Shown piece by piece: positions 27,592 through 30,228 of a DNA stretch of 64,000 bases (position 1 is its first letter; each line of letters begins with the position of its first letter). The notes under the pieces were generated by a model that was not told where the DNA came from, did no database searches, and was given only the letters and a program-made list of their open reading frames with translations. This DNA comes from Candidatus Levyibacteriota bacterium (GTDB taxonomy: Bacteria > Patescibacteriota > Microgenomatia > Levybacterales > UBA12049). A program made the translations under genes and the position numbers. The stretch is from positions 51,862 through 115,861 of the forward strand of contig JBBRCK010000001.1 of the NCBI GenBank assembly GCA_038205015.1. The letters are read 5' to 3'.

Positions 27592-29255
27592 GATTTAGCT
27601 ATGTAAACGTAATTGCCAAAGACTTTGGGAATTGAACCCGCTTTGGCGGGATTTTTCGTTTTTACAGGCGTTTGCACTTTAAAAAATCGCGTAAATACAG
27701 CACTTTGAATGAAAAGGATTAAACTTTTTGTGACCAAGCTTTGCTTGGTAATCAGAAAGTGGTAGGAATTTTGTCAGGTTATTCCATTAAAGAAATCTGA
27801 CACGATAAAGTTTATCATTTGATGAACTTTTTCAATTTTTTTGAGAATTTGATCCTGGTTCAGGATAAACGCTGGCGGCGTGCCTTAGGCATGCAAGTCA
27901 AAGGGGTTCCGCAAGGAACAACTGGCAGACGGGTGAGTAACGCGTAGGAATCTACCCCTAGGAGGACCATAGCCGTCCGAAAGGATGGGTAATAGTTCAT
28001 AGTCAATTTATTGTAAAGGAGTTAACGCTCCGCCAAGGGATGAGCCTGCGTCCTATCAGCTTGTTGGTGAGGTAAAAGCTTACCAAGGCGATGACGGGTA
28101 GCTGGACTGAGAGGTCGATCAGCCACAACTGCACTGAGATACGGGCAGTACATCTACGGATGGCAGCAACCAGGAATATTGCGCAATGGACGAAAGTCTG
28201 ACGCAGCGACGCCGCGTGGAGGAAGAAGGCCTTCGGGTTGTAAACTCCTTTTGATAGTCCTTTCACGGACTATAGAATAAGCACCTACTAACTACGTGCC
28301 AGAAGTCTCGGTAATACGTAGGGTGCAAGCGTTATCCGGATTTATTGGGCGTAAAGTGTGCGTAGGCTCATCGAAAAGTCATACCTTAAATACTAAGGCT
28401 TACCCTTGGGAGTGGGTATGATACTTTCGATGTTGAGGATTGTCAGGGGTACTGGAACAGTTAGTGTAGCAGTGAAATGCGTTGATATTAACTGGAACAC
28501 CGATGGCGAAGGCAGGTACCTGGGATTTTCCTGACGCTGAGGCACGAAAGCTAGGGGAGCGAAACAGATTAGATACCTGTGTAGTCCTAGCCGTAAACGA
28601 TGTCTGCTAGCTTTGTCCGACTTGTCGGACGAGGCGCAAGCTAACGCGTTAAGCAGACCGCCTGGGGAGTACGGCCGCAAGGCTAAAACTCAAAGGAATT
28701 GACGGGGACCCGCACAACCGGTGGAGCGTGTGGTTCAATTCGAGACAAAACGAAAAACCTCACCAGGGTTTGACATGATACCGTACATTTTTCTAGAAAT
28801 AGAGAGAAATCCGCAAGGATGGTACCACAGGTGCTGCATGGCTGTCGTCAGCTCGTGCCGTGAGGTGTTCCCTTAAGTGGGGAAACGAGCGCAACCCGCG
28901 TCTAATGTTGAATAATCATTAGAGACGGTCCCTAGTTTTCTAGGGAAGGAAGGAGCGGAAGACGTCAAGTCAGCACGGCCCTTATACCCTGGGCTACACA
29001 CACACTACAATGGCGAAAAACAACGGGCTGCAAGCCGGCAACGGCAAGCGAATCCCTTAAATTTCGCCTCAGTTCAGATTGGAGTCTGCAACCTGACTCC
29101 ATGAAGTCGGAATCGGTAGTAATCGCAGATCAGCATGCTGCGGTGAATACGTTCTCGGGTCTTGTACACACCGCCCGTCAAGGCAGCAAAGTCGGTAGCT
29201 ATCGAACATCCCCTTTGGGGATGGAGATAGAGATTGGCGATGAAGCTTAAGTCGT

Positions 29256-29978
29256 ATAAATGTTGCGACCTATGTTGGCAACAGCATAGAAAACCTCAAC
29301 TGTATCGGTGAACTCCTACTTGAGTTTATAATTATTTTTTAAATAGTTTATACTTAAGGGACAATACCGAGGGAAGTCGTCTTGATTTAATTAAGATTGA
29401 CCCCGTAGAGACTACACGTTGACGCCTTGAAAAATGACAAAACCTTATTTACTTGGTGCATTACATGATGGTACTGAAAGAAAATTTACTTATCGTATCG
29501 GTCAGAAAGATAAAGAGTATATAGAATTTCTTTTAAAAGGAATTCAATCTCTTGGTCAAAAAGCCTGGATGTATAAAGAAGGGAAAACTCGACAATTTTA
29601 CATTGTTGAATTCTCAAAATTTTTTTTGAAAGATGCAAATATAGCATCGATTCAAGATAAGATTGATTACATCAGAGGATATTTCGATGCGGAAGGAGGA
29701 ATCTCCAGAGATTCTAAGATTCGTTATTATATTTATTTTGCTCAGAAAAATCTGAAAGATTTACAAGAGTTAAAAGGATATTTAACGGAACTTGGAATAG
29801 CCTGCGGTATTATTCATAATCCAAGTAAAAAGAGAGATCCAGATTATTGGCGTTTTTTTATAAGTGTAAAATCTTATAGAGAATTTGCGGAAAGAATTGG
29901 ATCTTGGCACCCAGTAAAAAGTCATTTTTTAAGGATGAAGATATAGTCCATGCCCCTAGTAATAGGTGGATTTACATG
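29256..29978 (+). mobile_element. Group-I-like intron in 16S rRNA, inserted in AAGTCGT|AACAAGG near the 3' end, carrying a homing endonuclease ORF
   Basis: exon sequence is contiguous only if 29256..29978 is removed; 5' splice site follows U, intron ends in G. Confidence 0.7.
29434..29946 (+). CDS. LAGLIDADG homing endonuclease (double-motif) encoded inside the 16S intron
   Basis: two LAGLIDADG blocks: LLGALHDGT and IRGYFDAEGG; 170 aa. Confidence 0.85.
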   Translation: MTKPYLLGALHDGTERKFTYRIGQKDKEYIEFLLKGIQSLGQKAWMYKEGKTRQFYIVEFSKFFLKDANIASIQDKIDYIRGYFDAEGGISRDSKIRYYIYFAQKNLKDLQELKGYLTELGIACGIIHNPSKKRDPDYWRFFISVKSYREFAERIGSWHPVKSHFLRMKI

Positions 29979-30228
29979 AACAAGGTATCCCTACCCGAAG
30001 GTGGGGATGGATCACCTCCTTTCTAAAATTAAATTGGGCGCGTCCCAATTTACAGAGTAGGAAAGAGAGATGGACGGCAAGTTAGTAAAATGTCTTTTGA
30101 CATTACTACTAATCGAATACGTAAAACACCAAGTGCAAGTAGCACTTGTAAAACTCTACTACTTATTTGTTCCTACCACTTTCTGGTTCAAGTCCCGATA
30201 TAATCGGGACGAAGTGCAATTCAACGTA

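Follow-up and report, generated by a model that had tools for sequence, protein, structure and literature searches.

Group I introns with LAGLIDADG_2 or LAGLIDADG_3 open reading frames (ORFs) occur recurrently at position 1498 of the 16S rRNA in bacteria of the Candidate Phyla Radiation (CPR), a site named 16IS10 (Tsurumaki et al. 2024, J Bacteriol, PMC11270868); that study credits the first mention of it to Brown et al. 2015. According to the same source, the group I site 16IS10 is unreported in other bacteria, and the transcripts of CPR bacteria are reported to lack the rRNA insertions (PMC11270868). The only biochemically tested CPR example is I-ShaI, a LAGLIDADG_1 endonuclease of a 23S rRNA intron, which cleaves its own insertion site (PMC11270868). 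The Thiomargarita 16S introns (Salman et al. 2012) are likewise group I introns in a bacterial 16S rRNA gene and, in the accounts given by PMC11270868 and PMC4853749, interfere with PCR surveys; their host is of a different phylum (Gammaproteobacteria).

The insertion described here lies in a window of 64,000 nucleotides, the whole stretch of DNA analysed. It shares with 16IS10 the gene (CPR 16S rRNA), the position (E. coli 1498), a group I-like RNA and a LAGLIDADG_3 ORF, as well as Microgenomates/Patescibacteria hosts, a patchy distribution and empty sites in relatives, and there is no essential difference between the two. This intron type is already documented in CPR at position 1498, and the present case has low novelty and is nothing new in kind; an earlier reading made from the sequence alone (the sequence-only reading) overstated the matter in calling the insertion position worth recording, as 1498 is already catalogued (PMC11270868). 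That catalogue contains no secondary structure of this intron, which is given here, and it classes CPR LAGLIDADG proteins as single-domain, with the N-terminal region of LAGLIDADG_3 proteins as “non-domain”, whereas in the present protein the N-terminal 70 residues are predicted to form a second, divergent domain. I-ShaI is also encoded by a CPR rRNA group I-like insertion and is also a LAGLIDADG enzyme; however, it belongs to the 23S rRNA and carries one LAGLIDADG_1 domain acting as an I-CreI-like homodimer, in contrast to the two-domain LAGLIDADG_3/I-DmoI-type monomer predicted here. The insertion is very probably a mobile, splicing group I intron with an I-DmoI-like homing endonuclease, located in the linker between helices 44 and 45 (h44-h45 linker); its splicing and the cleavage activity and specificity of its enzyme are what we infer from the evidence below.

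Interruption of the 16S rRNA gene

The sequence-only reading had proposed that the 16S rRNA gene is split by 723 nt at 29256..29978, and the sequence, the SSU match of exon 2 and the E. coli alignment confirm this exactly (Table 1). Exon 1 ends in ...GAAGCTTAAGTCGT at 29255, and exon 2 begins with AACAAGGTATCCCTACC at 29979 and terminates in ...GGATCACCTCCTTT at 30022. On inspection the insertion is preceded by U and has G as its last base, both as claimed. Alignment of the 3' end to E. coli rrsH, a check that had been proposed along with the claim, fixes the junction between U1498 and A1499, where a single-stranded linker connects helix 44 with helix 45. The segment 29979..30022 corresponds to positions ~1490-1533 of the Rfam SSU model with near-perfect posterior probability and all helix-45 pairs formed. 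With the insertion removed, the 16S can be aligned over its full length (1-1463) to 16S genes of relatives that have no interruption, with 86-87% identity.

A covariance model running contiguously through the region had been named beforehand as evidence against a split. Formally this is what is obtained, with a full-length match to the Rfam SSU model (1-1533) that is nominally contiguous over 27837..29301 and ends inside the insertion, but the final ~45 model positions are forced onto the 5' end of the intron, where the posterior probability is low and helix-45 pairs are broken. For this reason the contiguous match is an alignment artefact and no evidence against the split, which stands. Outside the gene, a long-range stem flanks the whole 16S gene together with the intron and presumably has a role in pre-rRNA processing.

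Table 1. Coordinates of the features of the interrupted 16S rRNA gene, the intron and its ORF within the window
Feature	Coordinates	Strand	Description
Presumed pre-rRNA processing stem, 5' arm	27750..27768	+	pairs with 30170-30188; inverted repeat I1, 19 nt, 95% complementary
16S rRNA exon 1	27837..29255	+	E. coli ~1-1498, ends ...AAGUCGU; Rfam SSU_rRNA_bacteria 1308 bits
Group I intron	29256..29978	+	723 nt between U1498 and A1499; supported by sequence, partial Intron_gpI matches, covarying P1-P10 and related loci
Internal guide sequence UGUUGCGAC	29261..29269	+	pairs with both exons (P1, P10)
P2 hairpin, 8 bp, GNRA loop (GCAA)	29270..29289	+	both-sided changes in 8/8 pairs; L2 GNRA in 19/19
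P3 5' strand	29294..29300	+	pairs with 29418-29424; 5/6 pairs changed on both sides; also RNAalifold
P4-P6 domain	29305..29404	+	covariation, RNAalifold
P4	29305-09/29366-70	+	97.9% paired
P5	29314-16/29359-61	+	91.2% paired
P5a	29319-25/29352-58	+	length varies between homologues
P6	29371-73/29402-04	+	P6 and P6a as one helix, 93.0% paired
P6a	29376-78/29399-401	+	length varies between homologues
P7 5' strand, R element, G-[A bulge]-GACUA	29408..29414	+	pairs with 29944-29949; five core pairs invariant
P3 3' strand	29418..29424	+	pairs with 29294-29300
P8 5' strand CCUUGAAAAAUGAC	29425..29438	+	pairs with 29921-29934; includes ORF start codon 29434-36
Predicted LAGLIDADG homing endonuclease ORF, 170 aa	29434..29946	+	in L8 (P8 loop); LAGLIDADG_3, AlphaFold, I-DmoI fold match
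P8 3' strand	29921-34	+	pairs with 29425-29438
J8/7 AUGAAGAUA	29935-43	+	identical in 17/19
P7 3' strand UAGUCC, S element	29944-49	+	pairs with P7 5' strand 29408..29414
P9.0	29950-52/29975-77	+	encloses P9; 98.2% paired, 2 covarying pairs
P9 hairpin, GNRA loop (GUAA)	29953-58/29963-69	+	5/6 pairs changed on both sides; L9 GNRA in 19/19
Terminal guanosine (omega-G), 3' splice site	29978	+	G in 19/19 homologues
16S rRNA exon 2	29979..30022	+	E. coli 1499-1542: helix 45 and anti-Shine-Dalgarno tail
Presumed pre-16S processing stem, 3' arm	30170..30188	+	pairs with 27750-27768

Group I structure and covariation

The earlier description of the insertion as group I-like is supported by an explicit P1-P10 structure, by covariation in 19 homologous introns and by an independent RNAalifold prediction, which together argue that 29256..29978 is a genuine group I intron. 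In P1, exon 1 GUCGU (29251-55) pairs with guide GCGAC (29265-69), giving a U29255·G29265 wobble at the 5' splice site; four of these pairs are invariant in 19/19 homologues and the splice-site U·G is found in 18/19 (98.9% of cells paired). P10 joins guide UGUU (29261-64) to exon 2 AACA (29979-82), with 86.8% of cells paired. The outer P7 pair, G29408-C29949, covaries to U-A in 2/19, and G29410-C29948, beside the bulged A29409, is presumably the guanosine-binding pair, by analogy with the layout of Tetrahymena P7. P8 coincides with inverted repeat I4 (14 nt, 93% complementary), and its base has changes on both sides, for example CCUU/AAGG to CCGC/GCGG. The outermost P3 pair of the proposed structure, 29294-29424, is unpaired in 10/19 sequences and should be left out of the count.

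The structure scored for covariation was drawn by hand, with the alignment assembled around it by the same analyst, and over the 19 homologous introns, which come from other genomes and were aligned with MAFFT without reference to structure, its 72 pairs have 90.7% of cells paired, compared with 80.7% in shuffles and 35-46% in slid-partner controls. Changes on both sides occur in 35 pairs, and the observed values were reached in 0/500 shuffles. RNAalifold, applied to the ORF-deleted sequences, independently recovers P1, P2, P3, P4, P5, P6, P8, P9.0, and P9, and agrees for all nested helices.

The search with Rfam Intron_gpI (RF00028), also proposed with the sequence-only reading, gave two partial matches of 30.7 bits (29802-29969) and 18.2 bits (29250-29424) and no match at the gathering threshold of 50 bits, which even their sum does not reach. 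The score falls short because the ~480-nt ORF in L8 splits the model, so the shortfall is a detection limit and no structural failure. Within the core, the conserved R and S elements (GACUA, AAGAUAUAGUCC) can be aligned to the model, and 29921..29949, comprising P8 3', J8/7, and P7 3', is the best-matching block. A group II intron was also considered and rejected, as no group II family was found at E up to 10 in 29000-30200 and the insertion is at position 1498, not at 1400, where a group II intron is found in CPR 16S rRNA. Rfam matches to DUF805b, BTnc060, and FAM13A-AS1 are at chance level (E 0.7 to 9.8) and far under their gathering scores.

The LAGLIDADG open reading frame

The two LAGLIDADG blocks that had been read in the 170-aa ORF are both present, LLGALHDGT at residues 6-14 and IRGYFDAEGG at residues 80-89. 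The profile search suggested for this ORF returns Pfam LAGLIDADG_3 (PF14528) at residues 79-156 (E 4.8e-15; 56 bits, cut-off 22.5), a match that covers the C-terminal half of the protein; the N-terminal half has no LAGLIDADG match in Pfam. The AlphaFold model (pLDDT 91.6, pTM 0.87) is compact and consists of two alpha-beta-beta-alpha-beta-beta-alpha units, with predicted domains at residues ~1-65 and ~73-170. In Foldseek the best full-length PDB matches of this model are I-DmoI (E 1.4e-9, 177-194 columns), I-Tsp061I, and PI-PfuI, with TM 0.63-0.70 to I-DmoI and I-Tsp061I, while a sequence search with the ORF against PDB chains gave no match. The Pfam match, the two-domain model and the full-length match to I-DmoI support the double-motif enzyme that had been claimed, and the protein is predicted to be a two-domain LAGLIDADG monomer. 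This reading draws on motif and predicted structure because sequence methods miss the N-terminal domain: when the two halves were compared as profiles (hhalign), the probability was 1.7%, which is not significant, and a duplication within the protein is not demonstrable from sequence.

I-DmoI, from the 23S rRNA intron of Desulfurococcus mobilis, and I-Tsp061I resemble the predicted protein in having two LAGLIDADG helices, in their small size and in being encoded in an rRNA intron, but sequence identity is only ~20% and the ORF has 170 aa compared with chains of ~172-204 residues. I-DmoI has Asp in its first motif and Glu in its second, as does the ORF protein, where D12 is invariant and E87 is present in at least 90% of 32 homologues, with D in some. 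Each of these residues ends its LAGLIDADG helix, and they are predicted to be the catalytic acidic residues. The I-DmoI intron is archaeal and is spliced by a protein endonuclease; the present ORF, unlike I-DmoI, sits in a bacterial group I ribozyme.

The search found 1413 homologues of the ORF, which in this copy is full length with all family-invariant residues present. The final 9 codons extend into the ribozyme core, over P8 3', J8/7, and P7 3', so that 29921-29946 also codes for the C-terminal SHFLRMKI and the stop codon; L166, R167, M168, K169, and I170 are nearly invariant. No Shine-Dalgarno sequence can be recognised upstream of the ORF, whose start codon lies within P8, and expression of the ORF is therefore uncertain.

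Distribution and proposed homing

Of 19 related genome loci, which represent several lineages of Microgenomates and other Patescibacteria, 18 have the same intron at the same site, while the insertion is absent from many relatives and the uninterrupted target site is found in at least 120 metagenome contigs. The ORF has decayed in four of the 19 loci (L005, L010, L018, and L019), where the ribozyme is kept. The homologues are named Levybacteria, Daviesbacteria, Woesebacteria, Chisholmbacteria, Microgenomates, and Patescibacteria, names that support the link to the Candidate Phyla Radiation drawn earlier and, together with 16S similarity, suggest that the host is a Microgenomates-type CPR bacterium. 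Comparison of 16S and endonuclease identity across loci (74% and 73% for L014, 86% and 72% for L008) gives weak hints of horizontal transfer.

In the proposed mechanism the 16S gene and intron would be transcribed as one precursor, in which the intron would adopt the group I core structure, P1-P10. P7 would bind an external guanosine, and this would attack after U1498, held in P1 by the U·G wobble with the guide, and the freed 3'-OH of exon 1 would then attack after the terminal G29978 while P10 aligns exon 2. The rejoined ...AAGUCGU-AACAAGG... would restore the decoding-centre strand, helix 45, and the anti-Shine-Dalgarno tail. The endonuclease, as a two-domain monomer, would cut the uninterrupted AAGTCGT-AACAAGGTA in intron-less 16S alleles (predicted target duplex sequences GATGAAGCTTAAGTCGTAACAAGGTATCCCTACC; GATGAAGCTTAAGTCGTAACAAGGTATCCCTACCCGAAG), and repair of the cut allele from an intron-bearing copy would thereby spread the intron. 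The protein may also help in splicing.

Alternative explanations

If the insertion were an intervening sequence cut out by RNase III-type cleavage and left unligated, the 16S would exist as two fragments, one of positions 1-1498 and one of 44 nt from the 3' end. Bacterial 23S rRNA is known to contain unligated intervening sequences, and some of the CPR insertions may belong to this class (PMC11270868); however, such sequences are usually short helix-tip extensions, whereas here 723 nt lie at the decoding centre, in the single strand that links h44 to h45, and the ends of the insertion form no conserved stem with each other. There is also a complete covarying group I core, a guide that pairs with both exons and an invariant terminal G. 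As guide-exon pairing and a terminal G would be purposeless without ligation, fragmentation is a very improbable explanation. It is scarcely credible that the insertion is an expansion segment kept in mature 16S rRNA. The formal full-length Rfam SSU match is the only point for this, but its end is forced and of low probability, the true helix 45 and tail are at 29979-30022, and many relatives have no insertion. The established structure of the ribosome implies that the decoding centre would be disrupted if 723 nt with a protein-coding ORF stood between A1492/A1493/U1498 and helix 45.

A decayed relic would have an inactive ribozyme, an inactive endonuclease or both; either this 16S copy is a pseudogene or splicing is wholly dependent on a helper encoded by the host or the ORF. 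Homing endonuclease genes cycle through decay, as the broken ORFs in related loci illustrate, LAGLIDADG proteins can be maturases (PMC11270868), and the sequestered start codon also fits this explanation. In this copy, however, the core helices, guide, U·G wobble, terminal G, and both GNRA loops are all intact, the ORF is undamaged, and the remainder of the 16S has a score of 1308 bits. Since a CPR genome usually has a single 16S copy (PMC11270868), an unspliceable intron would be lethal. A relic is therefore improbable, and a splicing, mobile group I intron is the preferred explanation.

Implications

Standard rRNA callers would end this 16S ~720 nt too early, at 29301, with loss of helix 45 and the anti-Shine-Dalgarno tail. 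The intron also splits the universal 1492R primer site, which has 1 mismatch in the spliced RNA compared with 6 in genomic DNA. As there are a further 3 mismatches in the 515F site, this organism would escape amplicon surveys.

The 170-aa family, which has at least 1400 natural variants and is counted as “single-domain” in the CPR literature, may rank among the smallest known LAGLIDADG enzymes that are two-domain monomers, and because its C-terminal helix is dual-coded with the ribozyme core and P8 sequesters the start codon, translation of the ORF and folding of the ribozyme could exclude each other; taken as a whole, this proposal is slightly favoured. If true, the family would provide a compact natural scaffold aimed at the 1492R primer site, which is among the most conserved bacterial DNA sequences. 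The element serves as an illustration of the homing cycle in genomes that are reduced and have one rRNA copy, a setting in which splicing has to be correct.

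The split 16S rRNA gene

An Rfam scan of the 64-kb window finds a single bacterial SSU rRNA gene (1308 bits), whose start is at 27837. By direct reading, exon 1 terminates ...GAAGCTTAAGTCGT at 29255, a 723-nt insertion occupies 29256..29978, and AACAAGGTATCCCTACCCGAAGGTGGGGATGGATCACCTCCTTT follows as 29979..30022; the sequence-only reading had given exactly this insertion, preceded by U and ending in G, and all of it is borne out. The nominal end of the full-length Rfam match is 29301, with the closing ~45 positions of the model, which cover helix 45 and the 3' tail, forced onto the start of the insertion at low posterior probabilities and with the helix-45 columns unpaired. 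In a search restricted to 29940..30100, SSU positions ~1490-1533 fall on 29979..30022 with near-perfect probability and all helix-45 pairs formed. E. coli rrsH, in which AAGTCGT/AACAAGG (slash, insertion point) is 1492-1505, matches the spliced 3' end at nearly every base; the insertion therefore lies between U1498 and A1499, a position that had been left to an E. coli alignment. At least 120 metagenome contigs contain a 32-nt joined-exon probe without interruption, and when aligned over its whole length (1-1463) the spliced gene is 86-87% identical to several of the genes on those contigs. With helix 45 and the tail located and the spliced gene matching uninterrupted ones, the split is confirmed.

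Structure of the intron

The Rfam Intron_gpI model gives partial matches that miss its threshold, in two separate pieces: 29250-29424 (18.2 bits, P1 to P7/P3') and 29802-29969 (30.7 bits, very clean over ...GAUGAAGAUAUAGUCC... and P9). The ORF separates the two pieces, and its ~480 nt in L8 explain the low score. The structure was drawn on a MAFFT alignment of the window intron with those of 18 related loci (table), and by structural definition the insertion is a group I intron.

Features of the intron and flanking genes
Feature	Position	Remarks
P1	29251-55 / 29265-69	splice-site U29255·G29265
P10	29261-64 / 29979-82	single 9-nt guide UGUUGCGAC pairs with both exons
P2	29270-89	GNRA loop
P3	29294-300 / 29418-24	
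P4	29305-09 / 29366-70	
P5	29314-16 / 29359-61	
P5a	29319-25 / 29352-58	
P6	29371-73 / 29402-04	
P6a	29376-78 / 29399-401	
P7	29408, 29410-14 / 29944-49	A29409 bulged
P8	29425-38 / 29921-34	
ORF	29434..29946	170 aa
J8/7	29935-43	AUGAAGAUA
P9.0	29950-52 / 29975-77	
P9	29953-58 / 29963-69	GNRA loop
Terminal G	29978	
Upstream of 16S		GH57 gene, unannotated ORF
Downstream of 16S		SRPBCC-like gene, two family-2 glycosyltransferases, tRNA-Cys, tRNA-Ile, dCTP deaminase

In this alignment standard pairs fill 90.7% of 1318 cells, against 80.7% in shuffles and 35-46% with slid partners; 35 of 72 pairs change on both sides, and no observed value is equalled in any of 500 shuffles. Compensatory changes lie mostly in P2, P3, P8, P9 and P9.0. 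Across the 19 sequences, P7 is invariant save its outer pair G29408-C29949 (U-A in two) and P1 save the splice-site U·G (present in 18), while the terminal G and the GNRA loops L2 and L9 occur in all. Given ORF-deleted sequences and not the hand structure, RNAalifold finds P1, P2, P3, P4, P5, P6, P8, P9.0 and P9; the P7 pseudoknot is beyond what it can draw. The earlier group I assignment is thus supported by a complete P1-P10 structure with covariation and by independent folding.

The encoded protein

In the ORF product, Pfam LAGLIDADG_3 covers residues 79-156 (E 4.8e-15), and sequence methods recognise nothing in the N-terminal 70 residues. The two motifs originally proposed hold up: LLGALHDGT, with invariant D12, is mirrored in the second half by IRGYFDAEGG and its E87. 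A confident AlphaFold model from 32 homologues (pLDDT 91.6, pTM 0.87) has two consecutive alpha-beta-beta-alpha-beta-beta-alpha units, and its top Foldseek match in the PDB is the two-domain monomer I-DmoI (E 1.4e-9, TM 0.63-0.70, 177-194 aligned columns), followed by I-Tsp061I, the PI-PfuI endonuclease domain and WhiA. A large protein collection holds 1413 homologues, the majority exactly 170 aa, and those named are from Microgenomates or Patescibacteria. The model supports a predicted two-domain I-DmoI-like LAGLIDADG protein. Pfam-based work describes the LAGLIDADG_3 proteins of Candidate Phyla Radiation (CPR) bacteria as a single domain plus a "non-domain" N-terminus (PMC11270868), a description that the predicted fold would refine.

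The ORF fills the P8 loop. It starts with an ATG (29434-36) within the P8 5' strand, and its final nine codons (SHFLRMKI and stop) are written in P8 3', J8/7 and P7 3'; LRMKI is nearly invariant among homologues because these codons double as RNA structure. Ribozyme folding and ribosome transit would then compete on the same molecule.

Predicted splicing and mobility, and alternatives

If the insertion were an intervening sequence whose flanks stay unligated, or an expansion segment retained in the 16S, neither a guide intact for pairing with both exons nor an invariant terminal G would be expected, and its place in the decoding-centre linker also speaks against both; these readings are disfavoured. 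So is a dead relic, as the ribozyme and the ORF both look intact in the window copy, and it is less likely still in a CPR genome that probably has a single 16S copy.

The element is best read as a well-formed mobile group I intron at 16S position 1498, with a predicted I-DmoI-like homing endonuclease, and is probably active. Guanosine-initiated two-step splicing would restore the decoding-centre strand, and the endonuclease would direct DNA-level homing into empty AAGTCGT/AACAAGGTA sites, both steps being established group I and LAGLIDADG biology. For CPR rRNA insertions, a passage of PMC11270868 reports splicing in transcripts, citing Brown et al. 2015.

Related introns

Relatives of the ORF, gathered at one genome per species, gave 19 loci (L001-L019), of which 18 carry a same-site insertion of 705-819 nt; L011 is without recognisable exon motifs. 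The junctions are AAGTCGT/...G/AACAAGGTA in 17 of these 18. In L016 (L016:2267-3054, labelled Saccharibacteria) the 5' junction is AAGTCGA/A..., with A replacing U and the U·G wobble broken; this intron either has a variant splice site or is inactive. Both L016 and L017 also carry some 80 additional nucleotides that separate the P7 5' strand from P3'. In L005, L010, L018 and L019 the ORF is frameshifted or truncated with the RNA helices kept, which is the endonuclease-decay phase expected of the homing cycle.

By BLAST, extra 16S insertions, each of about 770-930 nt, occur at window-16S ~1027-1030 in L006 and L007 and at ~1332-1335 in L001, L006 and L010, the latter probably the published position-1400 site; the 1498 intron is the only insertion in the window 16S. 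Many genome records with this intron (L003-L007, L009-L012, L014 and L019) bear titles naming "uncultured Gammaproteobacteria", "Pseudomonadales" or "Pseudomonadota". The 16S exons in them nevertheless resemble the Microgenomates-type 16S of the window (74-95% identity, identical helix-45 sequence), and the taxonomy given in the records looks unreliable.

Host affinity and gene surroundings

Among the fetched loci the closest 16S fragments are those of L010, at 94-95% in partial stretches, and of the Levybacteria genome L001 (16S 91% over 221 nt, endonuclease 82% identity), and this similarity indicates a Levybacteria-like Microgenomates affinity. The Rfam scan gives no LSU rRNA (23S) match anywhere in the 64-kb window; the 16S gene stands alone, unlinked to 23S or 5S, with protein-coding genes on both sides. 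A tRNA-Ile(GAT), often found in the 16S-23S spacer, is at 32553-32625, 2.5 kb downstream and beyond two glycosyltransferase genes.

A 19-nt inverted repeat (27750-27768 / 30170-30188, 95% complementary) encloses the gene and intron and is probably a pre-rRNA processing stem. After it, at ~30231-30253, a hairpin and T-run (CCACTC-CAAGC-GAGTGG-TTTTTT) can be seen by eye, absent from the terminator scan listing. A perfect sigma-70 consensus (TTGACA, 16 nt, TATAAT; 12/12) at 27564-27591 precedes the 16S start by ~245 nt. Between the two, at 27637-27660, is a terminator-like hairpin CCCGCTTTGGCGGG with a T-rich run; the arrangement may be a leader, an attenuator or chance. Against the Rfam consensus, the 16S is missing ~14 nt at 28003-28020 (near model positions 177-200) and ~24 nt at 28252-28275 (near 444-477), each part of a helix, in keeping with the reduced rRNAs described in CPR bacteria. 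The universal 515F primer site (~28296-28314, GTGCCAGAAGTCTCGGTAA) has three mismatches to GTGCCAGCAGCCGCGGTAA, a second reason for amplicon surveys to miss the organism.

Relation to catalogued insertions

Tsurumaki et al. 2024 (PMC11270868) surveyed 380 CPR 16S genes, 48% of them with insertions, and defined ten recurrent sites, with group I introns at 16IS4-7 and 16IS10. LAGLIDADG_3 ORFs were found in 16S insertions only, at 16IS5 and 16IS10, alongside LAGLIDADG_2, and the paper explicitly names "the IS at position 1498 of the 16S rRNA gene". The window intron is an instance of this class. The present analysis adds a modest amount to it: a secondary structure set out explicitly and tested by covariation, the overlap of ORF and ribozyme core, and a predicted two-domain I-DmoI-like fold. 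In practice the intron matters for primer bias and for rRNA gene annotation.
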